This document shows, piece after piece, positions 18,701 through 44,459 of a DNA stretch of 44,459 bases. The notes under the pieces are model-generated. The model did no database searches and was not told the origin of the DNA. It was given only the letters and a program-made list of their open reading frames with translations. How positions within the stretch are numbered: position 1 is the stretch's first letter; every line of letters starts with the position of its first letter. The position numbers and the translations under genes were made by a program. This DNA comes from a virus, in the IMG/VR virus record IMGVR_UViG_3300010300_000001; one strand, written 5' to 3'.

Positions 18701-21700
18701 CCGCGCACACCGTCTGTGGACGCCGTGTCTCGCGGCTCTAAGGTGTCGGAGCAGGCCGCGCAGATGATCGCCCAAACCATTGGCGAGGGCACTCTGGGCG
18801 ATGTCCTAAACAGTCGCTCCAAAACCGCGTCGATGCTTAGCGCGCTGGTCAAGTCCGGCGCCTTCGACGAGGCTGAAATTGAGTCACTCATGGAGGGCCA
18901 GAGTGGCCTGCTGACTAAGGCCGGCCGCGAGCTGGTTGAAAAAACCATCATTGGCTCGCTTGTCACGGACGTGCAACGTCTGTCGGCTTTGCCTGCAAGT
19001 GCGCGAGGCAAGATGATTCGGTCGCTGCCGTCGCTGATGCGCCTGTCGGCAAGCTGGCCGCAGTTCAAGCATCACCTGGCGGCCATGTTCGATGGGCTGG
19101 CCACGATGCGCGGGGCCGACACTAATCTGGCAACGGAGGTTGACCAGACTAGCCTAGAGGACGAGCCGTGGAAGCGCGACATGGTGGCCGTCGCGCTGCT
19201 AAGCGAATTCATGGGCCGGGGGCCCAAGTCCTGGAACGAATTTGCCAAGGACCTGGTGACGGCCGTTACCGAGGCCAACATGCAGCAGGGCGCCATGTTT
19301 GGCGAGCCTGTGGCGGCTGATCCGGTAGAGGCGCTGTTGAAGCTGGTTGGCGATACACCGATGGGGCGCCGGCTTGCGCAGGCCAGCAACTTTGACCCGA
19401 CCGTTCAAATGCAAGAGGCCGAGGCGGCCCCGGAGGCGGCCCCGGAGGCGGAGGCCGAGGTTGACGCGCCTGCCGCCGAAGAGCCTGCTGCCGAAGAGTC
19501 CGTTGCCGCCGAACTGCCGCAGGTGCCGGCCAGAAAGCGGCGCTACTCGCCTGCCACTGAGCAAATGGCCGACGCGCTCAGGCAGCTCGCGCTGGAGCCG
19601 GAGTTGGTTGCCGGCAGGTCGTTTGGCCGCCTTGAAGATGCAGACATTGCATTCCTGGCTCGCCAGGCGGCTGCGGCCGTGGCTGAAGAGTGGGGCACGT
19701 CTGAGTTTGTGGAGTTCGCTACAGAGCTTGCCACAAAGCATTCTCAGATCGACTTCAACACGGCCATAGCTTTTATCCATGGCGTTGACGCCCTGGCCCG
19801 CTCTGCGGGATCGCAACTGCCTGGCTTTGATGTAAGCGGCACCATTGAGGCCATGCTGAGCTCGGTGGCTGTGGGGCGCGAGCGCTCTGAGCTCGAGACC
19901 GCTGGCCTGGTGGGCAACTACGTCAGGACCACGCTGCAAGCGGAAATGGAGTCCCGTCTCGGGGGCGAGCAGGAAGCCGATGCCGAGGCCCGCGAAGCGC
20001 CGGACCTTGCTTGGTTTGATGCTTCGCGCAAGAGCCCAGCGTTCTCGCAGCTAGGCGAGCTTGCGGACGAGCAAGATGGCGTTCGCAAAGGCGACGTGGT
20101 GGTGGTGCTTGACGGCACCCGCATGCGCATTGATCGGGCAAGCACGGTCAACCGTGACCGGGACGTTATGCGCTACGATAGCGGCGAAGGCCGCATCGAA
20201 GGCACGGAAGGCTCGTTTAGCCCTGGGAGCAAGCGGCCTGTGCGCCGCAACATGCAGCAGCCCGTGCTAGTTATTCCCAAGCGCTTTGTGGACAACGACG
20301 CGTACCTTGCGCTGTCTACAGGCGACAAGCGGCCGGCTGTAGATACAAGCAGCCAGGAGGCGTACGAGCGCAGCGTGGACGACGCGATGAACTTCATTGC
20401 AAACAACTTGCTGCGCGAACCGTCCAAGGCTCACCGCAAGGCCGACCGGGAAACTCTACTCAATCTGCGCAACGAGCTCGCTGGCCAGCAGGCCGCAGCC
20501 CCTGAGGCGGCTAAGCCGGCGGCAGACGCAAGCTACGAGCAGATTGAGCGCGAGTACCTGCAAAGCATTCGTGATGCGCTGGGCGTCGATGAGCAGCAGG
20601 CGGCCGTGCTGTCTTACCTAATGGATTCAATGGGCCTCGACCGCAGCACCATTGACTTTATGCGAGGCAGCACGCCAGACCCCCGCTTGCTCAACCAGCG
20701 AGTGTGGCATGGCTCAAGCGCGGCGTTTAGCAGGTTCGACACCGGGTTTATTGGCACCGGCGAAGGCGAGCAAGCCTATGGGTGGGGCCTGTATTTTGCG
20801 TCGCGCAAATCGGTTGCGGAATGGTATCGCGTACAGATTGCGGGTCGCGGAAAGGTAGATCAGCCGCACCTGCTTTTGCAGCAGCGCACCAGGAGCGACG
20901 AGCCTGGCGCAGTTGTTTATAACTATGAAGAGCTTCGCTTCCTCGGCCAGCGCATTCAGGACGCGTGGCGGGAGTGGTTCAGAGCCGCCAGCCAGTCGGA
21001 GACGGGCCCCCCTAGCGCAATGGAGCAGATGGATTGGCTCAACCGCGCGTTGAAGTCAATGCTTGCCGATGCGGAGGCTGAGCTTGCGCGGCAGCGAGCC
21101 GGCGGCCCGAACACGTCGCCAGTGCTTTTGCGCGCAGCCGAGAGAATCGCTGGCAGAATGCGCGATGTCGTCAACGGCACTAATGACGTTGGGTTTGAGG
21201 TGACGCTGGCTGGTCATAGAGGGCAACTGTACGAGGTCGAGCTCCATCCGGCCGAGAGCCAGTATTTGCTCTGGGAGGCAAACGCCTCAGGCCGTTTCTA
21301 TCTCGGTGGTGGAAAACAGAGTCGCCGGGTGCAGACCGCGCTTCAGCCGATTGTCGAGCTTGTGTTTACAAGCCAGGGGCGTCGCGTGCCACGCTACCTT
21401 AGTGGAGAAGAGTTGTACAAGGAGCTGGTCTCCTACTTTGAGCAGAGGCCGCTGCCCAAAGGCCAGTCTGCGCAAATGGCAGCGTCGCTCAAGCTACTTG
21501 AATCGGGTGTGCGCGGCATCAAATACGTAGACGGGGTAAGCCGGAAGAAAGTGGGCCCGCTCCACTACAACTACGTAGTTTTCGACGCGGCAGACACGCG
21601 AATGACGCGTTTCTTCCAGCAGGGCAACGAAGTGCAGGGGCAGGTTGAGTTGGCCCAGGATGGCCGCGCAATCATCACTGGCTTCGAATCTGCCAACTTC

Positions 21701-24700
21701 AGTACCGGCGTCCATGAGATTGCGCACGTAGCTCGCCGCCGCCTGGTCAACCGCGAGGTGCCAGCCAGCGAGCGCGAAGGCATTACGTCGCAGGACATCC
21801 TAGAGGCCGAAACGTGGTGCGGCGTCGAGGACGGCAACTGGACTGAAGAGGCCGAGGAAAGGTTTGCCCGCGGCTTCGAGAAGTACCTGATTGACGGCAA
21901 GGCGCCGAACGCGCAGCTGCACGCGATGTTCCGCGTCATTGCCCAGTGGATGCGTCGGCTGTACGAGCATGTGCTGACCCGCACGGCCGGCACGCCGTAC
22001 GAGGTCAAGCTGACCCCCGAAATGACTCGCGTGTATGACGCTCTGGTGACGCGGGGCCAGTACACCGGCCCAGAACAGGAGGGCGAGGTTCATGGCCCTG
22101 TCAAGGAGGTCGATGGAGTCAGGCCAGTTCGGTGGGTTGGAGGCAACGTGGATGTGGCGTACAACCGCCGCTACGACATTGTTCACCGCACGTGGAACAA
22201 GGACCCGCAGAAACGTAACACGATCATCTACGTGTTCGACGTTGACCCGTCGCGCAACTACTCGCCGGCCGACGTGTATCGAATCGCCTACACCAGCGGC
22301 ATGATCCCCAAGGGCGGTGGCAGCACAGGCGCCGAGGAGATTCAGACCCCGCACGGATTTTATGTCCGCCGGCAAAAAACCAACCGTGGGCTCAAGAACG
22401 ATTGGGTGCTGAATCCTGAGTTCCAAGAGGAAGATGCGGCGACTGAGGCTGCCGCGCCGGACGCCGAGGGCCTGGCCGGAAGCGAGGCAGACCCCCAGCC
22501 TGATGGCGGGCAGGATCTGAGTCGGTGGTTTGAGCGGCGAAGAAAGCAGCAGATTGATTTTCTGCGGCCGTTCATCGACGCCGTGGTTGAAGACTTCATC
22601 GGCACCTTGCCCGAAAAGTCTCGCGCCAGTGCCCGACAAGCGCTTAGCGGCACAACTTTCAGCAGCGACTTGGCCGTGGGTGATCGCGTTGTGGCTGCTG
22701 CGGCCTTTCGTGGCTACCAGTACGTAGACACGTACCCGGATGGGCCCGCCGATGCCCCGGCGCTTTACAGGGACGGGATGGTTGTTGCCGACCGCAACAA
22801 CTACACCGCGACGGGCATGAAGCTATTCGCCTACATTGCCAGGCAGCGCACCCGCGAGCTCGAGGAGGCCATTGCGGGCGCCCCTAGCTTCTGGCGCGAA
22901 GGGGCAATCGAGGTCGCGCAGCCGGGGTACAGGGTGGTTGGTCTAGTTGACCAAAAGACGCATGAGCTCCAGCAAGACGGAAGCTGGCTGGAGATTGACC
23001 CAGACGCTGAGTCCTACACGGGCCTAGAGCTTCCTGCGCGCCCTGAGGGCCTGCCTGACTGGCACCCGCCGCTAAACGAGCACGACGCGTTTGGCGATAT
23101 GACCCGGCCCGCTGAGCCTGAAATGATCGGGCCGGTGATGCCGGAGGATGAACGCCGGGCTCTGGAAGCTGCGCAAATCCTGATTGAGCGCGAGCGCCGC
23201 AAGCGCCGTAAGCTGCCGCCGGGCGAGCAGTCAAACCTCTTCGGCCCTGGCGAACCCGTTGACCTCGACCCGCCTAGCGATTCTGGCGGCGATCGTGGCT
23301 TGCAGCCGCCGGCTTCGTTTGAGGGCGGGCCCCGGCCCGGACCGGAGGACGTGGAGGGCGTGCGCCGCTCGTTTGCTTTGGGCGCGCAGCCCAGGGTCAA
23401 GCGCGCAAACGTCAGTGGCGACCCGAACGTGCGCAACTACGTGCGCGCCAGCGACGTGCAGATGGGCCGCAAAGGCGAGTACATGGCCAGCATCAAGCAG
23501 GCCGAAAAAGACGCGACTCGCATGCTCGAGGAGATGGGGGAAGAAGCCTTTGTTGAAAACTTCCTGACCAGGGCCCGCGAGGGAGTGCTGCACGATCAGG
23601 TGGAGTTCCTTGCAGCCCGACGCATTAGCGCCAACCTGATCAGAGATGCCCTGGGCATGGGGGGCACAGACAGGCATGCGCGTGCCATTGAGTTCATGTG
23701 GGCGTACCGTGCCGCGAGGGGCCAGGTGGCTCGTTCGCTTGGCATGGTGCGCGACGTGTTCCCTCGTACCGCACGCGAGCAGCTGGCCGATGTCTTGGCC
23801 ATGCCTAGCCAGCGAGTGCGCCGCCGGTTCCTGAACCTGGAAAAGAAGCGCCGCGAGCTGCGAGAGAAGGAGCGCGCACAGGCCAGCGAAGCCAGTCGCA
23901 AGCGCCTGCGAAAGGAGCTCGAGCGCATTGAGCGCCAGATCGACGCAGAGCTGAAGCGCGAGTCTGAGCGCATGCAGAAAGCGCTGGAGAAGCTGCAAGA
24001 AGATGGGTTGAACCCCGAGACCGTGATTGAATCCGACCTTATGGATCCCAACACGCGCGGCCGTATCGCCAAGGCTATTGCTGAGGCCAGGTCGAACAAG
24101 TGGGATTGGTTCTTGGCATACCAGTACAATGCAATGCTGTCGTTTGCCGGAACGCACGCGCGCAACATTGCCGGCAACACGCTAAACACTCTCCAAGAGC
24201 AGTTTGTGCAGCGTGGGGTTGAGGCGGGCATTGCCCGCGCCCTGCGGCTGTTTGCTCCTGGGAACTTTGAGGCGGCGCCGAAGTTTGGCGAGTTCAAGGT
24301 AATGGCCCAGATGCTGCCGGAGGCGTTTATGCAAGGCGCCCTGAACGGGTGGCTGGGCTACAAAAACAACGTCAGCGCCACGGCCCTGTACTTCCAAGCC
24401 ATGGGCATCGAGGTGCAGGACATGAGCCGTATCGAGCAGGACATTGCGCGGCAGGTGGGCAGCGGAAAGCTGCTGTACCTTGACTACCTGGGCACCCGCC
24501 TGCTGCAAGGCATGGATGACTGGGCCAAGACGTTCGTGGCTATCATCGAGATGCACGCCCGCTCGTATCGCGAGGCAGTCAACATGGGGCTCAAGAATCC
24601 CAAGGACATTGAGAAGCAAATGCGCATCTTCATGCTCGACGTGCAGCACCCGCTGCATCAAGAGGCGTGGACTGCGGCGCTCAAAACTGCGTTCCAGTTG

Positions 24701-26032
24701 CCGCCGGGCGAGTTCACTACCGGCTTGCTGAACCTGCGCAACAAGGCTGACTCAGCGTGGGATGTCCCGATGGGCACTCTCATGTTCCCGTTCGTGAACA
24801 CGCCGACCCAAATCTTCCAAGCGGGCCTGCGCAAAATCCCGCCGTCCAAGCTGATTCAGATGGCTGTGCGAGCCGTGCGCACCGTCAAGGCTGCCCGAGC
24901 CGATGAAGGCGCCGAAGATGTCGCCAAGGGGCGCACCGTGTACACGGGCGCGGAAGGCCAGCGGCAGTTGGTTGAGGATCTGGCCGATTTGGTGATTGGT
25001 GTCGGCGTGTTCTGGACCGTCATTGCCCTACTTGCTGGAGACGACGACGACCCGCGCCCGAAGATTACTGGTTCGCTGAAGCCGTGGGGGTCAGAGCGGG
25101 AGCTCCAGTACCGCGCTGCGCCGGCAATGTCGGTGCGCTTTGGGGACAGTTACTACTCGTATGCCGGGCTCGAGCCCCTTGCCACGTATGCGGCGCCGGT
25201 CGTTGACGCAGCAGAGCGCTGGCTGGGTGCTGTAAATGGCGGAACTAAGGAGCAGATCCTTGCTGCCAACACTAACGTGCTCAACTCCATCGTCGGTCTG
25301 GTTCGAGACAAGACCTACCTCCAGGGCTTTGGCGAGCTGGTGGACTTGGTGCAGTCTGGAGGCAAGTCACAATCGCTTGCAGATTTCATGTCCGACACGT
25401 TCTTCACGCGAATGGTGCCCAACGTCATTCGCGGAACGGCCAGAGAGTCGGACGAGTACCTGCGCCTAAGCCGCACCGCAGAAAAGTCGCTGCTGGGCCG
25501 CACGCTCAACGTAGACAAGCTGTTGCCTGTGCCTCCGCGAGTTGCGCGCTACCTGGGCATTGACCCTGCGCCGCCCAAGCGGGATATCTGGGGCCGCCCC
25601 ATTCCTCGAGGCGTGCAGATTGACTGGTCGTTTGGCGGGCTTGCCGGCCACCTGATGAAGGAGGCCGTGGGCCCCAAGAAGATGAACCCGGTGATGAAGG
25701 CCGACCTGGCCATCATGGCCTGGAACAGTATGGTGGAGCGCGGAGAGGCGATTGATCCCCGGACAGGGGACGTTGCAGAGCCGCTAAAGTTTGCTGGTAA
25801 GCGCGTCGGGCAGAACTGGTCGTCCGAAGAGGTTGACTTCGTAATGCGCGAAGGCGGCGGGCGGGCTCAGCGCGCTATCCAGGGGCTTGTTATTCGAGAC
25901 GTATCCAATCCCACGTGGTACGAAATGCAGGCGATTCGGAAGATACTGGATAAATCGTATGACGCTGCCATGAAGCAGGTGCGCGCGCAGCGCCGTGTGC
26001 GCAAGGCCCAGGAGCTCTCAACCACCAGGTAG
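15701..26032 (+). CDS. Giant multidomain (polyvalent-type) protein, 3443 aa, probably virion-borne
   Basis: Single uninterrupted ORF of 10,332 nt with a GGAAGGA Shine-Dalgarno. Motifs: HELVH (nt 17627-17641); ParB-like PPIVTLDGVVLGGNARTMGL (nt about 18431-18487); WHGS...GWGLYFAS...LHYNYVVFD (nt 20705-21595); HEIAH (nt 21713-21727) followed by EERFARGFEKYLIDGKAP; basic coiled coil (nt about 23828-24010); transmembrane-like LVIGVGVFWTVIALLAG (nt about 24983-25039). Confidence 0.85.
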   Translation: MATVQEPQDFTAFADRYWQVRGSGGPIGDEQLRPLLDEFGLPYWSGMEAALDEGVGRTKDFRTVVEESELADYLPFFAGAAQVDELLQIRSAANAVAEGTATQEQEDVVIRYMVDMATPGTWGGQVASLLVDMPAFMGEFAASGGVASLLKTGGKKVAGKLLRETIDQAAQKQAAGGVMKSLAKRGVNVGTHFGVQMGLGGVGGQRIMASTLQRTLGQAGMVLDENQAGELEVLMSSTLPQIEESLDIGITDYAIEVASEMSGGAIGKVVPIDKLTGMVLRGIQARAFAKGAQKYGVDKAMNFLAKSGWNGPMNEVLEEVAGNAMRAAAPNLEETADDIIPSWEEFTAMYVGFAVPGLAGGALGLGSDSMTSGPGKLPKGAARFETAEEAEQAGQRMGLVEPVASESADGFGLRRYADGPLVSEQEVSARVPARAPAPDADVDADAEPGTVDAEVVDTKAPPAEELSEEDEDFLLQPEYEDSDVLYQQLDAGAEGEYRRERAAVVFDEAERYASASGERAYVVTDPSNRALNYASRQEAIDLVQSGQGKVLAVLEPSREAEPARTILRDAQQVWGANATIVEPNLEREDVRAAQELAKRAGVRFVMVDPGEGAEDAPLGASARVGTIMVNARNKPPADEIAAHELVHELRRSNPELFDQLVDVLQRTAGERIEEARGSRDMSDEEAIARYAEPLAKLMRRMGTPQGRKLLRDIALEQPRLFDKIIDTVRRILAKIGLVQSPVMERKRLRMQEQLADLGERVTQEDVRAARLLHDSLTFIGKARLAGLLTGDEQGEVKLREAYLEEDPDRALRYRDDDMLGQSWAEDKERKLILADGTEIPFRYRVVNASDLLPSHDARRGFRQNPGGDKNERTYHIESQSKASRKNVRDIASDPQPERIFNTAPDPNTGPPIVTLDGVVLGGNARTMGLQLLYHNAWEKQENVDAAERVAQAAVQFAAREMGEEAEAVAIELEQPVIVRELQIATIPGALSRELNKDAAAPRTPSVDAVSRGSKVSEQAAQMIAQTIGEGTLGDVLNSRSKTASMLSALVKSGAFDEAEIESLMEGQSGLLTKAGRELVEKTIIGSLVTDVQRLSALPASARGKMIRSLPSLMRLSASWPQFKHHLAAMFDGLATMRGADTNLATEVDQTSLEDEPWKRDMVAVALLSEFMGRGPKSWNEFAKDLVTAVTEANMQQGAMFGEPVAADPVEALLKLVGDTPMGRRLAQASNFDPTVQMQEAEAAPEAAPEAEAEVDAPAAEEPAAEESVAAELPQVPARKRRYSPATEQMADALRQLALEPELVAGRSFGRLEDADIAFLARQAAAAVAEEWGTSEFVEFATELATKHSQIDFNTAIAFIHGVDALARSAGSQLPGFDVSGTIEAMLSSVAVGRERSELETAGLVGNYVRTTLQAEMESRLGGEQEADAEAREAPDLAWFDASRKSPAFSQLGELADEQDGVRKGDVVVVLDGTRMRIDRASTVNRDRDVMRYDSGEGRIEGTEGSFSPGSKRPVRRNMQQPVLVIPKRFVDNDAYLALSTGDKRPAVDTSSQEAYERSVDDAMNFIANNLLREPSKAHRKADRETLLNLRNELAGQQAAAPEAAKPAADASYEQIEREYLQSIRDALGVDEQQAAVLSYLMDSMGLDRSTIDFMRGSTPDPRLLNQRVWHGSSAAFSRFDTGFIGTGEGEQAYGWGLYFASRKSVAEWYRVQIAGRGKVDQPHLLLQQRTRSDEPGAVVYNYEELRFLGQRIQDAWREWFRAASQSETGPPSAMEQMDWLNRALKSMLADAEAELARQRAGGPNTSPVLLRAAERIAGRMRDVVNGTNDVGFEVTLAGHRGQLYEVELHPAESQYLLWEANASGRFYLGGGKQSRRVQTALQPIVELVFTSQGRRVPRYLSGEELYKELVSYFEQRPLPKGQSAQMAASLKLLESGVRGIKYVDGVSRKKVGPLHYNYVVFDAADTRMTRFFQQGNEVQGQVELAQDGRAIITGFESANFSTGVHEIAHVARRRLVNREVPASEREGITSQDILEAETWCGVEDGNWTEEAEERFARGFEKYLIDGKAPNAQLHAMFRVIAQWMRRLYEHVLTRTAGTPYEVKLTPEMTRVYDALVTRGQYTGPEQEGEVHGPVKEVDGVRPVRWVGGNVDVAYNRRYDIVHRTWNKDPQKRNTIIYVFDVDPSRNYSPADVYRIAYTSGMIPKGGGSTGAEEIQTPHGFYVRRQKTNRGLKNDWVLNPEFQEEDAATEAAAPDAEGLAGSEADPQPDGGQDLSRWFERRRKQQIDFLRPFIDAVVEDFIGTLPEKSRASARQALSGTTFSSDLAVGDRVVAAAAFRGYQYVDTYPDGPADAPALYRDGMVVADRNNYTATGMKLFAYIARQRTRELEEAIAGAPSFWREGAIEVAQPGYRVVGLVDQKTHELQQDGSWLEIDPDAESYTGLELPARPEGLPDWHPPLNEHDAFGDMTRPAEPEMIGPVMPEDERRALEAAQILIERERRKRRKLPPGEQSNLFGPGEPVDLDPPSDSGGDRGLQPPASFEGGPRPGPEDVEGVRRSFALGAQPRVKRANVSGDPNVRNYVRASDVQMGRKGEYMASIKQAEKDATRMLEEMGEEAFVENFLTRAREGVLHDQVEFLAARRISANLIRDALGMGGTDRHARAIEFMWAYRAARGQVARSLGMVRDVFPRTAREQLADVLAMPSQRVRRRFLNLEKKRRELREKERAQASEASRKRLRKELERIERQIDAELKRESERMQKALEKLQEDGLNPETVIESDLMDPNTRGRIAKAIAEARSNKWDWFLAYQYNAMLSFAGTHARNIAGNTLNTLQEQFVQRGVEAGIARALRLFAPGNFEAAPKFGEFKVMAQMLPEAFMQGALNGWLGYKNNVSATALYFQAMGIEVQDMSRIEQDIARQVGSGKLLYLDYLGTRLLQGMDDWAKTFVAIIEMHARSYREAVNMGLKNPKDIEKQMRIFMLDVQHPLHQEAWTAALKTAFQLPPGEFTTGLLNLRNKADSAWDVPMGTLMFPFVNTPTQIFQAGLRKIPPSKLIQMAVRAVRTVKAARADEGAEDVAKGRTVYTGAEGQRQLVEDLADLVIGVGVFWTVIALLAGDDDDPRPKITGSLKPWGSERELQYRAAPAMSVRFGDSYYSYAGLEPLATYAAPVVDAAERWLGAVNGGTKEQILAANTNVLNSIVGLVRDKTYLQGFGELVDLVQSGGKSQSLADFMSDTFFTRMVPNVIRGTARESDEYLRLSRTAEKSLLGRTLNVDKLLPVPPRVARYLGIDPAPPKRDIWGRPIPRGVQIDWSFGGLAGHLMKEAVGPKKMNPVMKADLAIMAWNSMVERGEAIDPRTGDVAEPLKFAGKRVGQNWSSEEVDFVMREGGGRAQRAIQGLVIRDVSNPTWYEMQAIRKILDKSYDAAMKQVRAQRRVRKAQELSTTR

Positions 26033-30746: not shown

Positions 30747-31597
30747 CGGGCAGCCTCCTGGTGCTTCAGCCAGCCCGGCATGGGCAGGACTTCGATTTCG
30801 GGTTTGGCTTCCGGTGCGTCAATGTTGGCCAGCGCTTGATCAACCAGGCCGTCTGCTCGCGCCATCCACGTTCGCATGTCCCACAGCCTCACCTGGTACG
30901 GCGGGTTCTTTTCCACGGCCAGAATCAGTTGGCCGGCCACGTCGCCCACCGCCGCCTGCCATGCCCTGGTGTACCAGGCCAGCTGGAGGTCGTAGTAGTA
31001 GTCCGTGGCCACGTAGTGGAACGGCCTGGCGCCCCAGTGCGTCGTGCCGGCGTTCTGGCAAGTTTTCACATCCAGAAGCCACGCGCCGTCCGGCGAGTCG
31101 ATCCACGCGTCTACACGGGCCTTGCAAGAGTGCCCGCAGTCCGTCACCCACGTGATGGTCCGTTCGGCGCCGGACAGGCTTTCAATGTAACGGCTCCAGT
31201 GCGGGTGCTCTTTGACTGCGTTGGCAGCCGCGCGAGCCTGCTTCATTTCGTGGGCCAGCAGCAAAGCCTTGCCCGGCGCCTGGTCGGCCTTCCAGGCTTT
31301 GTAGGTCTTCGTTGTGCGCGCCCCACAGCCCGTCTCCGGCGCGACGGCCACATCCTGGTCCAGAGCCTCGGGGGTCAGCAGGAGGGCGTGTACGGCCGTC
31401 CCAATGGCCATGTCGGGGGTGCTGGCCTTGGGCTGGGACTTGCGGGCCTGCCAGAACTCACGGCCCACCAGCAGGTCCTTCAGCTGGCCGCTACTGAGCG
31501 CATCGAGCTCCAGGTAGTTCTGCATGGGCCAGTTGTCGAGAACGCGTCCTGCGCGCTCCTGGGGCGTGCCTACATTGTCTGTGTCTGTGGTTTCCAT
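30743..31597 (-). CDS. PD-(D/E)xK exonuclease (RecE/ExoVIII-like, DUF3799-type), partner of RecT
   Basis: SSGQLKDLL...AIGTAVHALLL is an N-terminal pattern of this family. The nuclease core is ARVDAWIDSPDGAWLLDVKTC (D...D/E-x-K). Located upstream of recT. Confidence 0.7.
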   Translation of the reverse strand: METTDTDNVGTPQERAGRVLDNWPMQNYLELDALSSGQLKDLLVGREFWQARKSQPKASTPDMAIGTAVHALLLTPEALDQDVAVAPETGCGARTTKTYKAWKADQAPGKALLLAHEMKQARAAANAVKEHPHWSRYIESLSGAERTITWVTDCGHSCKARVDAWIDSPDGAWLLDVKTCQNAGTTHWGARPFHYVATDYYYDLQLAWYTRAWQAAVGDVAGQLILAVEKNPPYQVRLWDMRTWMARADGLVDQALANIDAPEAKPEIEVLPMPGWLKHQEAAR

Positions 31598-31824
31598 CTA
31601 GTCGTCCATCCAGTGCTGCCGTTGTGGAATCGGACTTCTAGGGCGACGCGCTGACCGCGCCGTATGCGGTGAGACACCGCTTGGGCCGGCACGTCCGGCA
31701 GAGTGACGTAGCGGTTGGTTCGCCCGTCGTACATTCGCCCCTTCAGACCCTCGACCCACACCCAGCCGCGGGTTCGCACCAGCGCCCGGGCCACGTCAGC
31801 CTGGGTTTGTCGTTTGGCGCTCAT
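31570..31824 (-). CDS. Hypothetical first gene of the leftward block. Start is 31824, or less likely 31860.
   Basis: ORF in frame with the track ORF 31570..31860. A promoter-like element ends 7 nt upstream of the ATG at 31824. Confidence 0.45.
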   Translation of the reverse strand: MSAKRQTQADVARALVRTRGWVWVEGLKGRMYDGRTNRYVTLPDVPAQAVSHRIRRGQRVALEVRFHNGSTGWTTRWKPQTQTM

Positions 31825-31836
31825 GCCAGGTATGCT
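31807..31836 (+). promoter_or_regulatory. Candidate sigma70-like promoter for the rightward RusA/GroES/sulfatase island
   Basis: TTGTCG, an 18-nt spacer, then TATGCT. Its -10 hexamer overlaps the opposite-strand -10 within the near-palindrome TATGCTA. Confidence 0.25.
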
Positions 31837-31860
31837 ACGCTCGAAACGAGCGGCGGGCAA
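31832..31860 (-). promoter_or_regulatory. Candidate sigma70-like promoter for the leftward block
   Basis: Minus strand reads TTGCCC, a 17-nt spacer, then TAGCAT, followed 7 nt later by the ATG at 31824. This would give a leaderless or near-leaderless mRNA. Confidence 0.25.
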
Positions 31861-31900
31861 GCGCGCCCACGCATGACGTAAACCCTTTCAATTCAAGAAG

Positions 31901-32149
31901 ATGACGACTATCAAGCAACGGCACGACAAGCTGGCCGACACACTTTCGCGTGTGCGGGCCGCTACAAACGTGGACGTGCAGATGATTCACGTGGTTGGCA
32001 GCGGCTATAACGGCTACCGTCTGGTGGTGCATGGGGCTGATGGTCAGCCGCTGCAAACTTTGCTGGGTCCCGTTACCATGGCAAGCCTAGAGAAGCACGT
32101 TGCGGGCATGGAACTGGCTGTCGAGCACCTGATCCCCCGCCGCCAATAA
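31901..32149 (+). CDS. Hypothetical protein (82 aa)
   Basis: First ORF of the plus-strand island. No motif recognised. Confidence 0.55.
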   Translation: MTTIKQRHDKLADTLSRVRAATNVDVQMIHVVGSGYNGYRLVVHGADGQPLQTLLGPVTMASLEKHVAGMELAVEHLIPRRQ

Positions 32150-32151
32150 TC

Positions 32152-32715
32152 TTGGCTGATATCAGTCGCTTTTCTGTCTGGGTGCCCGGCCGGCCAGTGC
32201 CGCAGCCTCGGCCGCGATTTGCCGGGCGCCCAATCTATACTGGTCCGGCCTGTCCTGCGTGCAAGCAGCGCCCGCAGCGCCTCAATGTTATGGCCGTGTC
32301 GGTGCCCCGTAAGTCCCCAATTGCCGAGTGGCGCAGTCACATGCGCGACCTGTTCATGCTTGAGGCTCGCGATGTCTGGGCACCGGGCACTACGTGGATC
32401 TGGGGCAGGGACGAGCCGGTGCAGATGCACCTGACGTTCTACCTGCCTCGGCCATCTGACCACTGGGGCCGCAACGAAGCGGGCATCGTGCCCAGGTATC
32501 AGGGCGTGCAGCACACGCGCAAGCCCGACATCGAGAACCTAGCCAAGGCCGTCATGGACGAGGCCGAAGGCACGCTGGTTGAGCGAGACCAGCAAGTCGC
32601 CCGCCTTCTGAGTGAAAAGCTCTATGTCCCCGAAACCAATGACCGCTGCGGGTGCTGGGTCGTGGTTGAACCCTTTGCCGAACGAACAGACACATGGAAA
32701 CCGCCAAGCTTATGA
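32152..32715 (+). CDS. rusA: RusA-family Holliday junction resolvase
   Basis: PQPRPRF near the N-terminus, HLTFYLPRPSDHW, and KPDIENLAKAVMDEAEGTLVERDQQV (compare RusA kpD.DNl.K.v.D). TTG start. Confidence 0.75.
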   Translation: MADISRFSVWVPGRPVPQPRPRFAGRPIYTGPACPACKQRPQRLNVMAVSVPRKSPIAEWRSHMRDLFMLEARDVWAPGTTWIWGRDEPVQMHLTFYLPRPSDHWGRNEAGIVPRYQGVQHTRKPDIENLAKAVMDEAEGTLVERDQQVARLLSEKLYVPETNDRCGCWVVVEPFAERTDTWKPPSL

Positions 32716-33041
32716 ACACGCCGACCCCGAAGGGGGTTCACCTGCTGGACTTTGCCCCTTGGGGACAGAACTGCCTGGTCGAGGTGATGGAGCTCAACCT
32801 GCAAACCGACGGAGGCATCTTCCTGGCTCCGCGCAAGGTCGATGAAGACGACCCTCTTGGCCTGTATCGAGCCGGGGATCCGCCGATGATCGGCCAGGTG
32901 GTAGGCGTTGGCCCTGACGTGAAAGATGCAAAGGTTGGCTGGATGGTGCTGTACGTCAGCAACTCCGGTGTCCCGTTTACCGCGGATAACCGCGAATTCG
33001 TGCTGCTCGAGGAGCCCTGCTTCCTGGCCGTTCAGCAATGA
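32712..33041 (+). CDS. GroES-like co-chaperonin fold protein
   Basis: GroES-like spacing: CLVEV...TDGGIFLAP...IGQVVGVGPDV...KVGWMVLY...REFVLLEEPCFLAV. The ATG at 32712 forms an ATGA overlap with the rusA stop. Confidence 0.55.
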   Translation: MNTPTPKGVHLLDFAPWGQNCLVEVMELNLQTDGGIFLAPRKVDEDDPLGLYRAGDPPMIGQVVGVGPDVKDAKVGWMVLYVSNSGVPFTADNREFVLLEEPCFLAVQQ

Positions 33042-34162
33042 AGCCTACGCTGGTCATAGTTCTGGATGACGTTGGGCCGGCCAACCTGGCCCAAGACTTC
33101 TGTGTGCCTAGCCGCCTGACGCCCGAGCTGGCCGACGGCGTGCTGAAGCAGGCCGTGCGTCACCAGCTATGGACGATGCCGTCGTGCAGCGCAACGCGCG
33201 CGGCTTTGTGGACTCGCCGTTACCCCAGCTCTAATGGCATCGGAACGATCGTGCGCCACAACGACGACCTGGGACTGGACCCTAACCTGGCGGCTTTGCC
33301 CGACGTTGGGCCGGGCCGCCGCGTTTACTACGGAAAGCACCATCTGTGCCCGCAGCAGATGATCAACCTGCATCCAGATGAGATGGGCTGGTCACTATTC
33401 CACGGGCACGCGTCTAACCTGGCGGCCGGCGACCAGGGCGGCTACTACGACTGGCTCGAGACGCGGGAGGGCGAGACTCACATGCAGACGCAGTACGCTC
33501 CGACCGTGATGACGGCCGCAGCGCTCGAGACCATCGCCACCAGCCGCGCGACTCTGGTTGTGGTAGGCATGGCCCTGATCCACAAGCCGTATCACTATCC
33601 GCCCTCCTCCAGCTTCAATGTCGATCAGCCGGAGGCAATGATGCGGCGCCTAGACCAAGATGCGGCGCAGCTTGTCGAAATGGCGCTGTCGTTTGATTGG
33701 CGGGTTGTGATGTTCAGCGACAACGGCGCCACGTCCGACCTCGGCGGCGGCAAGGGGTCGCTGTACCAAGAGGGCATCTGCACAGACCTCTACGTTTGGA
33801 ACCACGACGCCGAGAGCTCAGCGCTCGACGTTGTAGACGTAGGCACGCTGCTAGACGGGCAGCTGTCTGACGACTGGGATGCGCAGCCCATTGGCCGGCG
33901 ACGGTTCCACTTCGCTGAGAAGTTTAGCCCGAACCACAGGGGCCGGCCCGATGAGCCGCCGCCGGGCGCGCACTCCTACGCCATTGCCCGAGATGAGTGG
34001 AAGCTGATCTCCTGGGGCGAAAACCACAAGCCAATAGGCGCGCAGGCCGTGGAGCTCTTCAACCTGGAGGAGGACCCGCGCGAGCAGGTGAACCAGGCCG
34101 TGCACAACAAGCAGGTGGCGCGCGATCTGATCGAGCTGGCGCACGACGAGGTCCTGCTATAA
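33038..34162 (+). CDS. Type I sulfatase-family (alkaline-phosphatase superfamily) protein, 374 aa, no signal peptide
   Basis: VIVLDDVG (metal Asp pair). CSATRAALWTRRYP at nt 33185 onward fits the C/S-x-P/A-x-R formylglycine motif. Also YYGKHHL, MFSDNGA, GGGKGSLYQEGI and ELFNLEEDPREQVN. Confidence 0.75.
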   Translation: MKPTLVIVLDDVGPANLAQDFCVPSRLTPELADGVLKQAVRHQLWTMPSCSATRAALWTRRYPSSNGIGTIVRHNDDLGLDPNLAALPDVGPGRRVYYGKHHLCPQQMINLHPDEMGWSLFHGHASNLAAGDQGGYYDWLETREGETHMQTQYAPTVMTAAALETIATSRATLVVVGMALIHKPYHYPPSSSFNVDQPEAMMRRLDQDAAQLVEMALSFDWRVVMFSDNGATSDLGGGKGSLYQEGICTDLYVWNHDAESSALDVVDVGTLLDGQLSDDWDAQPIGRRRFHFAEKFSPNHRGRPDEPPPGAHSYAIARDEWKLISWGENHKPIGAQAVELFNLEEDPREQVNQAVHNKQVARDLIELAHDEVLL

Positions 34163-34165
34163 GGA

Positions 34166-34199
34166 GGGCCGGAAGCGGAGGGGCATCTGCTTCCGGCCC
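34166..34199 (+). terminator. 11-bp perfect GC hairpin 4 nt after the sulfatase stop
   Basis: GGGCCGGAAGC, a 12-nt loop, then GCTTCCGGCCC. No U tract. Confidence 0.5.
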
Positions 34200-34446
34200 A
34201 GTCTGGCCCCTCGCAGAGCCAGTGGCGCAGTAGCGGAGGAAGGTGCGGTGCCCGCTAAAGCGCCAAAGGGATGACTGCCGAACTATAGGGGCCTGCGCGC
34301 CAGTCCACAAGCACTAGTGCGAGTCCGAAAACCGCATTGGCGGCCTGCCGAACCGCATGGCTGATCAGGGGAGGTAGGGCAAGGCCGCTTGGGTTTCCGG
34401 GACCTGGAAGAAAAAGGAAGCCTTGTGCGGCCTCGCCCTTGAAGGT

Positions 34447-34480
34447 GCGGCCCGGCATTGCCCCCCGGCAGCCGGGCCGC
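34447..34480 (-). terminator. 10-bp GC hairpin about 40 nt downstream of the minus-strand gene ending at 34521
   Basis: GCGGCCCGGC, a 14-nt loop, then GCCGGGCCGC. Confidence 0.45.
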
Positions 34481-34520
34481 TTGCGCAACCGCTATCCCCG
34501 TTGAAGCGGCTTGCTCTAGG

Positions 34521-34889
34521 CTACTCCACCAGGCCGGCCACTTCCAAGACGCGCTTTTCTACGTCGTACAGCACGGCCTTCACGTCGGGACGGTCGCCTA
34601 CCTGCTTTTCCATGGCGGCAACGCCGGCTTTGATAGCTGCGCGGGCAAGTCGCATTTCCTGATCGGTCCAGACGGGCGCGGCCTCTGGTGCCGTTTGCGC
34701 CGGGCTGGGCGCGGCCTCTAGATGCCCCGGCGCCGCGGCCCCTCGCCGCTGGGCCTCTGCCGCAACCGCGGCCTTTGTGTCGGGATACAGGTCCCGCTCG
34801 GGCTGCATCAGCCAGGACAGATAGCTGTCCTCGAGCTCTGTAATCGGGCGCCCCTTGTACTTGCCAAAGGGCATAACGAACGCGTCCAT
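34521..34889 (-). CDS. DUF3820-like protein (FGKYKG motif). Start uncertain: 34889, 34874 or the GTG at 34916.
   Basis: MPFGKYKGRPITELEDSYLSWL is the DUF3820-type signature. Confidence 0.55.
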   Translation of the reverse strand: MDAFVMPFGKYKGRPITELEDSYLSWLMQPERDLYPDTKAAVAAEAQRRGAAAPGHLEAAPSPAQTAPEAAPVWTDQEMRLARAAIKAGVAAMEKQVGDRPDVKAVLYDVEKRVLEVAGLVE

Positions 34890-34966
34890 GCGTTGCACCT
34901 TGCTCCGCGCTGGCACGGGCGCGGCCTCTAGTCATCGTGCGGCCTGTGCCGAAACCGCAAACGGCA

Positions 34967-34992
34967 GGGGAGGCGCCCCAGTGGCGCCCCCC
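34967..34992 (-). other. Strong GC hairpin inside the 35032-34916 spacer
   Basis: Plus strand GGGG-A-GGCGCC ccagt GGCGCC-CCCC (one bulged A). Possible intra-operon attenuator or stabiliser. Confidence 0.4.
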
Positions 34993-35031
34993 CCTAGACC
35001 GTTGCAGTTTACCTACGCGGCCTGGCTACCG

Positions 35032-35700
35032 CTACCGCTCGACCTCGAAGCGGCTGCACTGCCACCACCTGTGGTTTGTAAGCAGGTCTTGCGCCGTCTC
35101 TAGCGCAATCTGGCAGGCCCCAAACGTCGCCAAGTCCACTCCCTCGAGCGGCGTACGGACAATGGCCGGCAGATCCCTGGCGACCCACAAGGGCGGCAAC
35201 TGGCCGAGCTTGGCGTACGCGTGGGCAATATCCCAGCTCAAGTCCATCCCGCCGCCGGTGAGCGCTAGATAGTGCGCGTCCCCGACCGGATCATCGGGCG
35301 CCGTCACCAGGCACACCGAAGTATCAATTAGAGCGCACTGGGCCTTACGCTCATCCATATCGAAGAGCTCGATCGGGTAGCGGTAGTTCATGGCCGGGCG
35401 CCAGCTATCGTCTTTCAGGGCCAGCTCATCGGCCAATGCTTCTAGGTCGTGCTTGTGCATGTCGCGCAGCTCCTCGAGCGGCGCATCGTTAGACCGTTCG
35501 TAGATCCAATCTGCCAGGCGGCCCGGCCACATGCTTTCAAAGTCCGGCAAGATCTGCGCGTACTCGCCCTGCCGCTCGAGCGCGTGCCAGTCAGTCCAGA
35601 TTGAGTGCGACCAGAGGTTTGTAGCGTGCAGGCGTCCGAACAGCTCGTGGCACTTGTTGCGCGCGTCTTGCAGCTTGACCGCGTCGGTTTGGGTTTCCAT
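35032..35700 (-). CDS. Hypothetical early protein (222 aa)
   Basis: Long ORF directly downstream of hammerhead copy A. Contains a conserved-looking YLALTGGGMDLSWDIAHAY segment. No family named. Confidence 0.65.
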   Translation of the reverse strand: METQTDAVKLQDARNKCHELFGRLHATNLWSHSIWTDWHALERQGEYAQILPDFESMWPGRLADWIYERSNDAPLEELRDMHKHDLEALADELALKDDSWRPAMNYRYPIELFDMDERKAQCALIDTSVCLVTAPDDPVGDAHYLALTGGGMDLSWDIAHAYAKLGQLPPLWVARDLPAIVRTPLEGVDLATFGACQIALETAQDLLTNHRWWQCSRFEVER

Positions 35701-37567: not shown

Positions 37568-37681
37568 TGCTATCCCTTTCGGTAGTGTGTAGCGGCGGAG
37601 CTCACCGCGAGCCCTGCCAGGTGGCTAAGTTACCATCGGCAGCCAAGCCTCACGCAATCAAAAAACAGCGGAGATTTCTAT

Positions 37682-38404
37682 ATGTGGAATGATGCCCAAA
37701 AACAGGAAGAGCCGGGCGGGCAGCCCGCGGACGCCTGGCTGGCTCTCGGCTTGGCCGGCCCGGACGACGAGCTGCCCGCCAACGTGGGCGAGCTGCTCCC
37801 GCCGCCGGCCGATGGACCAGCCCGGGGAGCTGATCGCTTGCGCGAGCTGCTGCCGGCCCTCGTGGCCCACCTGCGCGCCGGCGTGCCTACTCCCTCGGCT
37901 ACTCGGGCTCTCGGCTGCCAGGCCAGTTACCGATGGTGGCGCGAGCGAGCGGCGGAGGGACTCGAGCCCTACTGCTCGGCCCTCGCGTGCCTCGACCACG
38001 CGCGCTACCTGGCGGAGCTCGAGCTGCTGCAAGCGGTGAGGCGCGCGGCTCTGGGCACCCGGCGCAAGACCATCACGGTAGAAGAAGAGGGCCCCCACGG
38101 CCTGCGGCGCTCGGTCAAGCATATCGACGTGGAGCCGGACTGGCGGGCGGCGGCCTGGGCGCTCGAGCACACCCGGCAGGATACCTACGGCCTGGCGGCC
38201 GGGGAGGAGCTCGAGGCGGCGCAGGTAGACCCGCCGGCGATCATCATCGAGGGGCGAGCCGCGGATGCCCTGGCGGAGAGGCTTCGCCTCGGGCCTGGCG
38301 GGGACCAGCCGGCAGAGCTCGTCGGCGAGGGGCAGGAGCTCGAGCACCAGCAAGACGGCCAGGCGGACGGGCAGCGGCCGGCCAGGGGGGAGCAGCAGCA
38401 GTAG
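37682..38404 (+). CDS. HTH DNA-binding protein, small-terminase-like
   Basis: GGAG 7 nt upstream of the ATG. LRAGVPTPSATRALGCQASYRWWRE (HTH-like) and PDWRAAAWALEHTRQDTYG, a pattern common in small terminase or HTH phage proteins. The frame has strongly GC-rich third positions, unlike the two overlapping track ORFs. Confidence 0.45.
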   Translation: MWNDAQKQEEPGGQPADAWLALGLAGPDDELPANVGELLPPPADGPARGADRLRELLPALVAHLRAGVPTPSATRALGCQASYRWWRERAAEGLEPYCSALACLDHARYLAELELLQAVRRAALGTRRKTITVEEEGPHGLRRSVKHIDVEPDWRAAAWALEHTRQDTYGLAAGEELEAAQVDPPAIIIEGRAADALAERLRLGPGGDQPAELVGEGQELEHQQDGQADGQRPARGEQQQ

Positions 38405-38629
38405 GACGGCCAGCAGCAGCGGCCAGCAGGGTAGGCAGCCCGCGCGGCAACCGGGCCCGGAGTCCCGTTTCCTATAGGGGGGGGTGGATCGTTCCAGGTA
38501 GCCACTCCCCATCAAACCGGGTTGGGACTCCTACTGATCTCCCTGGGGCCACCACGCATATTTGCACACCTACCCAGCGGGGCCGTTTGTAAGCTGCCTA
38601 TTTTACACTTCTACCGGAGTAGTAGTTTC

Positions 38630-43851: not shown

Positions 43852-44459
43852 GTGACCAACACGTTCAAGCGGGTCATTTCGACCACGGCGCCCACCAGTA
43901 CTGGCACGGTTGACTACACCGTTACCGGCCTGGGCCCGTCTACAGACATCAAGGCTGTAGAGGTCGAGGTTGCGCGCGCGACTGCGCTAGACACCAACAC
44001 GGACGGCCGATCGGGCTGCAAGGGGTTCAGCGACGGAACGACCGAGGCTGTGCTTAGCTGGTCTGGCGAGCACAACGTCGGCACTACAGACACATACACC
44101 TACTCTGCGCAGGATAAGGTTGTAGCGTTGATGGACCCGGCGGACGGGTCACTAGAGGCGGTGGCGACGTTTGACTCGTTCATCACCGATGGCGTCCGGC
44201 TCAACTGGACAACGGCTCCCAGCTCAGCGTATCGCGTCGCAGTCGTCATTACCGCAGGGCTTGACGTAGAGTGCGACGTTCAGATTGTAGACCCAGCTGA
44301 CGCCGCCTCGGGCACCGTAACCGTCACGCCGGGGTACACGGCTGAAACGCACCTGGTGCTGTCCCTTGCCGGAACTATCAGTACCGCGTTTGACGGCACG
44401 CTGGAGAGCTCTAGCAGCGTGTCCTGGGGCGCATGCTCCAACGACGGCACGACCGTGAC
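43852..44459 (+). CDS. Structural (tail-fibre-like) protein, 5' part. It continues through the circular junction into 1..1165, giving 549 aa in total.
   Basis: GTG at 43852 opens a frame with no stop to the window end. 44356 corresponds to base 20 and is in frame (504 nt from 43852). The protein is Thr/Ser/Gly-rich and beta-type, and sits among fibre-like genes. Confidence 0.7.
   Translation, partial: MTNTFKRVISTTAPTSTGTVDYTVTGLGPSTDIKAVEVEVARATALDTNTDGRSGCKGFSDGTTEAVLSWSGEHNVGTTDTYTYSAQDKVVALMDPADGSLEAVATFDSFITDGVRLNWTTAPSSAYRVAVVITAGLDVECDVQIVDPADAASGTVTVTPGYTAETHLVLSLAGTISTAFDGTLESSSSVSWGACSNDGTTV
44337..44459 (+). repeat. Terminal overlap, copy 2 (identical to 1-123)
   Basis: Same 123 bp as bases 1-123. 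It lies inside a coding frame, so it looks like a circular-assembly overlap rather than a physical terminal repeat. Confidence 0.95.

Follow-up and report, generated by a model that had tools for sequence, protein, structure and literature searches.

A predicted leaderless S1-family sulfatase encoded by an uncultured phage

Work on sulfatases has dealt almost exclusively with cellular enzymes, either secreted or lysosomal, and PHROGs, the GenBank phages and BFVD hold essentially no phage sulfatases. Here we consider a gene at positions 33038–34162 (plus strand) of IMG/VR virus record IMGVR_UViG_3300010300_000001, a phage DNA of 44,459 nucleotides that we call the window (the whole stretch that was analysed). 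As judged from its sequence and a structural model, the 374-amino-acid (aa) product does belong to the formylglycine-dependent S1 sulfatases, though as a highly divergent member. The enzyme family is already known; what is new here is its recurrence in phages, in the form of a compact leaderless clade that has a degraded maturation motif and, in this lineage, an apparently coupled GroES-like partner.

The closest characterised enzymes are carbohydrate sulfatases of subfamilies S1_19 and S1_16 (PsS1_19B of Pseudoalteromonas, 6psm and 6prm; the iota-carrageenan sulfatases 6bia and 6b0j; 9fo1; and the Pedobacter yulinensis enzyme 7stt), which give the best profile matches (1e-59 to 1e-66) and the best fold matches, at 16–20% identity to the window protein. 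They share with it a two-domain fold (TM about 0.78), the catalytic residues and a compact size class, but they are secreted or periplasmic proteins of 440–480 aa, carry the motif C-x-P-x-R...L-T-G and come from polysaccharide-utilisation contexts, whereas the window protein is leaderless and about 45–70 residues shorter, and shows Ala at the +2 position of the motif, Arg for the Gly of L-T-G, and His for the Trp of a second block, G-K-W-H. The nearest cellular homologues are short secreted sulfatases in metagenome-assembled genomes (MAGs) of Planctomycetota, Chloroflexota and Myxococcota. These fall within one subfamily with the window protein (28% identity over residues 5–357 for the Planctomycetota; an example is locus L011, 9788–11185) and have in common with the window protein the blocks that in them read W-A-M-P-S-C-S-P-T-R, G-K-W-H-L, D-N-G and K-G-S-L-Y-E-G-G; unlike it, they have signal peptides, the canonical Pro (as C-S-P-T-R) and Gly, and cellular gene neighbourhoods.

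Two other cellular enzymes are instructive. AtsA of Pseudomonas aeruginosa (1hdh; profile E = 3e-40), the SulfAtlas reference, is matured and works in the cytoplasm and, like the window protein, is a leaderless S1 enzyme of the Cys type. It differs in being 536 aa long, in having the canonical C-S-P-T-R...L-T-G (PMC6189696), and in being the product of a chromosomal sulfur-scavenging gene. A sulfatase of Clostridium perfringens (C-I-A-S-R, hence C-x-A-x-R) is matured by the radical-SAM enzyme anSME, and so provides a precedent both for Ala at +2 and for maturation by something other than the formylglycine-generating enzyme (FGE); it is a cellular protein, though, the anSME coming from the same organism, and L-T-G is retained (PMC6189696).

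Among viruses, a search of BFVD by fold found no phage sulfatase; the only viral proteins there with this fold belong to giant eukaryotic viruses (Yasminevirus, Satyrvirus and Tetraselmis virus 1; E = 4e-16 to 1e-10), and these differ from the window protein in their eukaryotic hosts, their length (411–634 aa), their sequence (12–14% identity) and their unrelated context. Genes for FGE have been reported as auxiliary metabolic genes (AMGs) in marine Pseudoalteromonas phages (PMC10232697). Such phages carry the other half of a sulfatase system, the maturase, whereas the window phage has a sulfatase without a maturase. In the literature searched we found no description of a phage sulfatase, AMG papers either touching on sulfatases in passing or dealing with phage FGE.

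The gene and its predicted active-site codons are listed here, with conservation counted over 144 aligned relatives, of which 28 are leaderless and 116 leader-bearing:

33038..34162, plus strand: leaderless S1 sulfatase-family gene, ATG start, 374 aa (six-frame listing of open reading frames, ORFs, and translation)
33065..33070, plus strand: codons of D10 and D11, predicted first Ca2+ ligand pair; present in 144/144 relatives and equivalent to Asp13 and Asp14 of P. aeruginosa AtsA (PMC5066984)
33185..33199, plus strand: codons of C50-S-A-T-R54, with the predicted nucleophile Cys (to become formylglycine) and the stabilising Arg; C50 and R54 invariant
33335..33343, plus strand: codons of K100-H101-H102, from the G-K-W-H block, with His for the usual Trp; K and H predicted catalytic; K100 and H102 invariant
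33581..33583, plus strand: codon of H182, predicted active-site His, equivalent to AtsA His211 (role of His211 from PMC5066984); invariant
33719..33724, plus strand: codons of D228 and N229, predicted second metal-ligand pair, in the S-D-N-G block; invariant or 115/116, equivalent to AtsA Asp317 and Asn318
33752..33754, plus strand: codon of K239, predicted active-site Lys, equivalent to AtsA Lys375, within G-G-G-K-G-S-L-Y-Q-E-G; 28/28 leaderless and 115/116 leader-bearing

For the single sequence, membership of the Pfam family is marginal (Sulfatase, PF00884: 27.1 bits against a gathering score of 25, E = 3.1e-6, residues 6–260); NCBIfam and PHROGs gave no match to it, and phmmer against the PDB returned only E-values above 0.02, the top match being a spurious one to a collagen. 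Among 5.8 billion clustered proteins there were only five relatives. In a library of 1.84 billion representatives, a profile made from these five reached 25,257 proteins at E <= 1e-3, of which 1,025 were at E <= 1e-30. A 63-sequence subfamily alignment (A2) then served both for a profile search of the PDB and for an AlphaFold2 model. The profile matched the Pedobacter sulfatase 7stt at 1.8e-66, the S1_16 enzyme 9fo1 at 8e-66, the iota-carrageenan sulfatase 6bia at 1e-62 and the S1_19 enzyme 6prm at 2e-62, with human arylsulfatase A (ARSA) at about 1e-43 and AtsA at 3e-40. The model (pLDDT 93, pTM 0.93), which replaced a discarded earlier run on a 6-sequence alignment (pLDDT 51), has an N-terminal alpha/beta domain followed by a C-terminal four-strand sheet with a helix, and in Foldseek its first matches were S1_19 carrageenan sulfatases (E = 8e-22, TM 0.78), S1 sulfatases making up all 50 of the 50 best matches. 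Because profile, fold and all the catalytic residues agree, we assign the protein to the S1 family. A sulfatase had been proposed by an earlier, sequence-only reading of this DNA, and the identity holds up, the Pfam, profile and Foldseek matches being well outside what chance would give; the structure prediction that it recommended gave the two-domain S1 fold, and the outcome that it named as damaging, best matches lying outside the sulfatases, did not materialise, the best profile and fold matches both being true sulfatases.

Two other kinds of relationship were considered and set aside. Kinship with phosphonate monoester hydrolases (PMHs; SulfAtlas S1_0) was rejected, their structures 2vqr and 2w8s being absent from the 60 best profile matches and the 50 best fold matches. 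The metal-ligand pair D-N and the K-x-H pair are both present in the window protein, as in sulfatases, and these are positions at which we take PMHs to differ. Members of the alkaline-phosphatase clan that do not use formylglycine (LtaS, EptA/MCR, OpgB and PglZ) were ruled out by the C-S-A-T-R nucleophile context, by the lack of an N-terminal hydrophobic region and by the lack of a PADLOC match (to PglZ of BREX).

The sequence-only reading had also listed a set of landmark sulfatase blocks, and each of the motifs that it quoted can be found in the translation and aligns with the catalytic columns of the relatives. The blocks are V-L-D10-D11-V-G, P-S-C50-S-A-T-R54-A-A-L-W-T-R-R-Y-P, G-K100-H-H102-L, F-S-D228-N229-G-A, G-G-G-K239-G-S-L-Y-Q-E-G and, towards the C-terminus, L-E-E-D-P-R-E-Q-V-N. 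Ten residues (D10, D11, C50, R54, K100, H102, H182, D228, N229 and K239) are present in 28/28 of the leaderless relatives and in at least 115 of the 116 leader-bearing ones, and are strictly conserved across proteins at 25–47% identity, so that neither the metal ligands nor the nucleophile context, whose loss would have spoken against a sulfatase, has been lost. H102 of the G-K-x-H block is the counterpart of AtsA His115. The catalytic residues given by SulfAtlas for AtsA are Asp13, Asp14, Cys51, Arg55, Lys113, His211, Asp317, Asn318 and Lys375 (PMC5066984).

The segment that would be read by a maturase is less orthodox. The +2 residue of C-x-P-x-R is Ala in the window protein and Ser in its sister P0002; given the published consensus (C/S)-x-(P/A)-x-R (PMC6189696), the C-S-A-T-R of the former lies inside it and the C-S-S-T-R of the latter outside. 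Further along, the Gly of L-T-G is present in 136/144 relatives and replaced by Arg in 5/144, all of the window clade (Arg60 in the window protein), and position 101, Trp in 131/144 relatives, is His or Tyr in that clade. The sequence-only reading had described the Ala motif as within the consensus of maturase-dependent sulfatases. This stands for C-S-A-T-R itself, but the motif is less canonical than was thought, because the sister motif falls outside and because, with Arg for Gly, the clade fails the extended SulfAtlas catalytic-site pattern. That pattern ends in [TASL]-G, and the window protein fails it at the last position only. Just 86/144 members of the subfamily pass, so we regard the failure as a deviation and not as exclusion from S1. 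An updated PS00149-type pattern is failed as well (His for Trp at 101; the G-Y-x-T part absent), and is passed by 21/144 relatives. Strict patterns of the SulfAtlas and PROSITE style were dropped as a membership test, being too strict for a subfamily in which 21–86 of the 144 members pass.

Loss of the +2 Pro is commoner among leaderless relatives (7 Pro to 14 non-Pro) than among leader-bearing ones (96 to 20), with a Fisher p of 1e-5 that carries no phylogenetic correction, and some leader-bearing members of the same basal clades have no Pro either. Individual cases illustrate the spread: the leaderless relatives P0019, P0038, P0064, P0086, P0094, P0099, P0116 and P0140 have Gly, Ala, Asn, Arg or Lys at +2, motifs reported as beyond the published maturase consensus, and keep all the catalytic residues, and P0103, P0108 and P0122, with leaders or Tat signals, are members of the same clades that have no Pro. 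As far as the alignments indicate, then, the changes affect the maturase-read segment and the residues flanking catalytic ones, and they are the main reason for keeping the non-standard readings that are weighed below.

The protein was originally described as short, as starting at the catalytic domain and as having no signal peptide, and all of this is confirmed. The stop-to-stop frame opens at 32990, and 33038 is the first ATG, GTG or TTG within it; with no in-frame start upstream, a leader is physically impossible. There is no N-terminal hydrophobic region, and no Sec or Tat signal peptide, in the window protein, whose D10 is as close as 10 residues to Met1; in the AlphaFold2 model the first beta-strand begins at residue 4. 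Secreted relatives are 447.5 aa long at the median (leader 30 aa, core 417.5 aa), as against cores of 361–387 aa in the phage-borne proteins; from these core lengths, the small size of the window protein reflects a missing leader together with about 45 residues of trimmed loops, and not truncation. The gene is maintained under strong purifying selection as a functional gene, since its comparison with the copy on sister contig L004 gives 24 synonymous and 5 non-synonymous differences (dN/dS = 0.06). Its GC content by codon position follows the pattern of other window genes (third position, GC3, 0.81; second position, GC2, 0.43).

What of the genome in which it lies? The first 123 bases of the window (1–123) are identical to the last 123 (44337–44459), from which we conclude that the assembly is a closed (circular or terminally redundant) and complete genome of about 44.3 kb. 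It encodes a Terminase_3 large terminase, an SU10-type adaptor, weakly matching portal and major-head proteins, a DUF1353 protein that also matches a tail-assembly-chaperone PHROG, Bet/RecT, a DUF3799 or exonuclease VIII-like nuclease, and RusA. There are no tRNA genes in the window, and no integrase was seen in the ORFs scanned against Pfam. These 31 ORFs (all the plausible genes of at least 180 aa, and an ORF of 3443 aa) gave no match to FGE-sulfatase, Radical_SAM or SPASM, in agreement with the earlier observation that neither FGE nor a radical-SAM maturase is encoded. Searched with a hidden Markov model of the subfamily, the window yielded one sulfatase gene only. The GC and GC3 of this gene match the rest of the genome, GC varying from 59 to 67% along the window.

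The same gene (encoding a 99% identical protein), in the same neighbourhood, was found on 17 metagenomic contigs from at least seven runs. Beyond these near-identical contigs, four more divergent phage contigs carry it, including two of about 43.8 kb. The order RecT, DUF3799, RusA, Cpn10-like, sulfatase is shared by loci L001, L003 and L010, whose sulfatases are 41–47% identical to that of the window, and by the two contigs of about 43.8 kb, which encode sulfatase P0007 (37% identity, with a canonical C-S-P-T-R); the RecT–exonuclease–RusA module is kept together with a sulfatase in at least five related phages. A leaderless relative of 360 aa, P0010, occurs in a different type of phage (with DNA polymerase A, a Lar-like protein and a methyltransferase) and has no Cpn10 partner. 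At its loci (L021–L023) the sulfatase gene lies just after that for DNA polymerase A, near genes for a Lar-like restriction-alleviation protein, a PAS_3-domain protein, a VVA0879-family protein and an N6/N4 methyltransferase. The genes of the leaderless P0099 and P0094 stand among small ORFs that all run in one direction and include Gp80 or HNH matches, arrays that look phage-derived; the contexts of P0016 and P0064 are ambiguous, and the contig of P0019 is too short for a judgement. In a crude neighbour-joining tree without support values, the window clade joins P0007 and P0010 in a leaderless phage clade; the other leaderless proteins are for the most part placed in basal clades next to it, apart from the large cluster of secreted proteins. 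From these contexts, leaderless phage-borne sulfatases appear to be a recurrent set in several uncultured phages. This recurrence, the conserved recombination module and the coupling to a GroES-like gene described below go beyond the sequence-only reading.

Catalogued phages gave a different picture, in keeping with the opinion of the sequence-only reading that sulfatases are not a standard phage gene: besides the absence of a PHROGs match and of a phage fold in BFVD, no match in 50,697 GenBank phage records was obtained by blastn, tblastn or megablast with the gene or with 25 kb of the window as query, and scans of IMG/VR with the sulfatase and Cpn10-like alignments also gave none. When P0007 and P0010 were compared with the phage records by tblastn, the only hits were to bacterial contigs that had been catalogued as phage and to faecal contigs without annotation (about 25% identity), and these were rejected as sulfatases of isolated phages. 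Two further observations concern the wider subfamily. Five proteins that are among the top profile matches (P0006, P0008, P0009, P0026 and P0030) are 801–2712 aa long and contain two to ten matching stretches, as tandem arrays of a short sulfatase module. Locus L012 (CAMCWU010000004.1) encodes a secreted sulfatase of this subfamily and is labelled as a Klebsiella pneumoniae MAG, yet has 69% GC; an error of binning or naming almost certainly lies behind the label.

The sulfatase gene is the last of a four-gene plus-strand cassette that lies between minus-strand early genes. Its companions, and a hairpin that follows, are:

31901..32149, plus strand: gene for an 82-aa protein, the first of the cassette; ORF with no PHROG match; an 82-aa gene is at the same position in L004–L008
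32152..32715, plus strand: RusA-like Holliday-junction resolvase (PHROG 140, E = 5e-18); the true start may be internal
32694..33041, plus strand: GroES-like (Cpn10) gene, 115 aa; Pfam Cpn10 at 27.1 bits against a cutoff of 21.1, over 90/93 profile positions; PHROG 3188, co-chaperonin GroES
34162..34204, plus strand: hairpin directly after the sulfatase stop; 14-bp stem, -31.8 kcal/mol, z = -2.7, 1/200 shuffles as stable; no U-tract

At syntenic loci the resolvase matches Pfam RusA and is called at 124–190 aa. The TGA stop of the GroES-like gene overlaps the ATG of the sulfatase gene by 4 nt (ATGA, in …CAGCAATGAAGCC…), and there is no separate Shine–Dalgarno sequence for the sulfatase at the junction, an arrangement that, to judge from the sequence, is the classic one for translational coupling. 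The hairpin probably marks the end of the cassette; it was not called in a scan for intrinsic-terminator patterns, and a scan of 31500–35100 found no sigma-70-like promoter.

T4 gp31 is a phage co-chaperonin of the GroES family, and the known examples serve capsid folding and have not been linked to a sulfatase. The GroES-like protein of the window is likewise a small phage protein of the Cpn10 family with a G-G-I-x-L mobile-loop motif and without a phage GroEL (there is no GroEL gene in the window), but, unlike those of the gp31 type, its gene is coupled to a sulfatase gene in every member of its phage lineage. Aligned with the sequence of Escherichia coli GroES, it shows 27% identity, and its G-G-I-F-L matches the G-G-I-V-L of the GroEL-binding mobile loop. 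Its probable role is to enlist host GroEL for the folding of phage proteins, of which the sulfatase may be one. The pair is also present in L001, L003, L004–L010, L019 and L020. A specific link between the two proteins is suggested only by their coupling within this one lineage, and the idea of a constant companion of phage sulfatases was given up, because the partner is absent from the loci of P0010, P0099 and P0094.

Just past the hairpin, at about 34319, sister strains carry an insertion of about 550 bp that encodes a 174-aa Cys-rich protein with four CxxC pairs (Zn-ribbon-like; L004, 6222–6772) and that is not present in the window; identity between the sister strains and the window is 97.6% upstream of the insertion site and 85% downstream. 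Given this strain-variable insertion, the sulfatase gene borders an accessory-gene hot spot. Convergent with the cassette, at 34521–34916 on the minus strand, is a gene for a 131-aa protein of which only the N-terminal 30 residues match known families (QSregVF_b, 31 bits, and ExoX-like_C); the matching stretch is a short motif of the K-Y-K-G type that is also found at the end of exonuclease X. Neither the sulfatase nor the Cpn10-like protein nor two of their neighbours matched anything in PADLOC.

How might such an enzyme serve a phage? The sequence-only reading had offered desulfation from within the cell, or phosphoesterase activity, and both suggestions are speculative. In the reading that we prefer, and consider narrowly probable on the sequence and the structural model, a compact leaderless S1 enzyme would be produced in the infected cell's cytoplasm and hydrolyse a sulfate ester there, its gene being a captured accessory gene whose product is matured by the host. 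A host system would oxidise Cys50 to formylglycine in the cytoplasm, the candidates being FGE, an anSME-type enzyme and the as yet unidentified system by which Cys-type sulfatases can be matured in the cytoplasm of E. coli (PMC6189696). The catalytic steps would be those of established S1 chemistry (PMC3693508, PMC5066984): Ca2+, bound by D10, D11, D228 and N229, would hold the formylglycine hydrate, which would attack the sulfur; K100, H102, H182 and K239 would bind the sulfate and protonate the leaving group; and the sulfo-enzyme intermediate would then collapse with the release of sulfate. Because the nearest cellular homologues have leaders and C-S-P-T-R, it seems likely that the phage acquired the gene from among short, secreted bacterial sulfatases of a carbohydrate-type subfamily and that the leader was lost. 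Since the nearest characterised relatives act on sulfated sugars, the substrate is, by analogy, most likely a sulfated carbohydrate or a small sulfate ester, and its hydrolysis might supply sulfur or carbon, or alter a sulfated compound of the host. In this scheme, the GroES-like partner would bring in host GroEL for the folding of phage proteins, conceivably the sulfatase among them.

Several considerations tell against this account. Substrate, activity and formylglycine formation are predicted, and the ability of the host to mature the enzyme is an assumption. The maturation motif is degraded, with Ala or Ser at +2 and Arg for a conserved Gly at +10, and could be poorly recognised by FGE; the change W101H beside two catalytic residues, and the extra Arg residues R60 and R61 beside the nucleophile helix, hint at a changed substrate. 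The link to the GroES-like protein may be mere synteny, the partner being absent from other phage lineages with leaderless sulfatases. Moreover, the gene sits among early recombination genes and beside an accessory hot spot, not among metabolic or lysis genes, a position that fits a role in host takeover or counter-defence at least as well as a nutritional one.

The same chemistry might instead be exerted outside the cell, by enzyme that is released at lysis and desulfates a polysaccharide matrix (host capsule or extracellular polysaccharide, or algal or mucin glycans), so freeing virions to diffuse and adsorb in the way of the free depolymerases of phage lysates. The closest relatives in sequence and structure, being carbohydrate sulfatases that act on carrageenan, GalNAc-6-sulfate and mucin glycans, would accord with this, and the cellular relatives are secreted. 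The missing leader is no obstacle, as Cys-type sulfatases are matured in the cytoplasm anyway (PMC6189696) and loss of the leader would be expected upon capture by a lytic phage (the absence of an integrase being relevant here). We nevertheless think it possible rather than likely, because the gene belongs to an early recombination cassette and is not grouped with structural or lysis genes, the protein has neither a carbohydrate-binding module nor a tail-fibre fusion, and the core that is about 45 residues shorter than in secreted relatives points to trimmed substrate-binding loops.

Somewhat more doubtful is the idea that the S1 scaffold has been re-tooled to act on a phosphoester or some other charged host molecule (a nucleotide-derived defence signal or a modified nucleotide, for example), the protein being a host-takeover or counter-defence factor. 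S1 enzymes show cross-promiscuity to phosphate mono- and diesters, and the family includes PMHs (PMC3693508, PMC5066984). The early position of the gene, beside a variable slot for accessory genes, occupied in sister strains by that of the Cys-rich Zn-ribbon-like protein, would suit such a role, as would the proximity of the P0010 gene to a Lar-like restriction-alleviation gene and a methyltransferase; and the clade substitutions W101H/Y and G60R, next to catalytic residues, might be read in the same way, as might the degeneracy at +2 among leaderless members (7 Pro and 14 non-Pro, against 96 and 20). The degeneracy is, however, also seen in leader-bearing cellular members of the same basal clades, and so is not phage-specific; the full sulfatase-type set of residues is invariant; the best profile and fold matches are all to true sulfatases, with 2vqr and 2w8s missing from the 60 best and the 50 best, respectively; there is no match to a PADLOC or anti-defence family; and we know of no sulfated or matching defence signal. 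A bolder form of this idea, which we hold to be just as doubtful, would make leaderless S1-fold enzymes a phage-specific toolkit gene for the intracellular and non-nutritional removal of sulfate or phosphate from a host molecule that is relevant to infection or defence, with maturation departing from the FGE rule and with the GroES-like protein as a dedicated folding or activation helper in this lineage.

It is improbable that the protein is a weak or unmatured enzyme or a pseudo-enzyme, in which the Cys stays unmodified and catalysis is slow or has given way to pure binding. The motif does deviate at +2 and +10, the phage has no recognisable maturase, and a choline sulfatase with unmodified Cys still turns over, slowly (PMC6189696); but the conservation of ten catalytic residues at 25–47% identity, together with the dN/dS of 0.06, argues for selection on catalysis, and a pure binder would not need Arg54 or the metal ligands. 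Finally, that a bacterial gene was mis-assembled onto phage DNA, or lies in the host flank of a prophage, as the absence of sulfatases from catalogued phages might have led one to suspect, is refuted by the exact 123-bp overlap with which the genome closes, the 4-nt overlap with the upstream phage gene, the match of GC and GC3 to the genome, and the presence of the same gene and neighbourhood on 17 contigs from at least seven runs and of the module on four divergent phage contigs.

The preferred reading, of a captured intracellular sulfatase, would most likely come down to an ordinary accessory hydrolase, and if the enzyme is a plain sulfur-scavenging accessory it makes a modest addition to viral AMGs. 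The recurrence has a wider interest: that several unrelated uncultured phages keep a trimmed, leaderless sulfatase among their early genes suggests that a sulfated or similarly charged substrate in or around infected cells matters to phages. These proteins also offer a natural test of the rules of maturation, as their activation would depend on the host and the Pro thought to be needed by FGE is often lost; and at 360–375 aa they are among the smallest complete S1 sulfatases, and could serve as minimal scaffolds for enzymology or biotechnology.

Clues to the host are inconsistent. The nearest relatives of the large terminase, TerL, are in Streptomyces and Thermobifida phages (34%), those of Bet/RecT in Pseudomonas phages (40%), and those of the exonuclease in Roseobacter, Synechococcus and Moraxella phages (28–30%). 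Tetranucleotide composition correlates best with two Planctomycetota contigs (r = 0.61–0.62, among a handful of cellular loci compared), and loosely defined Shine–Dalgarno motifs precede 13/39 starts. A sulfatase-rich host is possible.

Most of the other window proteins have no PHROG or Pfam match, and the phage lineage is essentially undescribed; even the candidate major capsid gene (6208–7401) had no tblastn match in the 50,697 phage records. Opposite-strand ORFs overlap at 37658–38515 (minus) and 37682–38404 (plus), with third-position GC of 0.81 and 0.85, respectively, and neither has a family match, so the coding strand is ambiguous there. Directly after the SU10-type adaptor gene is an ORF of 1601 aa (8713–13518, plus strand) with no Pfam match, and the structural region of the related 43.8-kb contigs includes ORFs of 1975 aa and of more than 1636 aa. 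The ORF of 3443 aa (15701–26032, plus strand) takes up nearly a quarter of the genome and encodes a polyvalent protein, in which there are a ddrB-like ParB domain (E = 3e-14) and, below threshold, matches to LPD14 and ART-PolyVal (ADP-ribosyltransferase); from these domains, it is probably an injected, multi-activity host-takeover protein.

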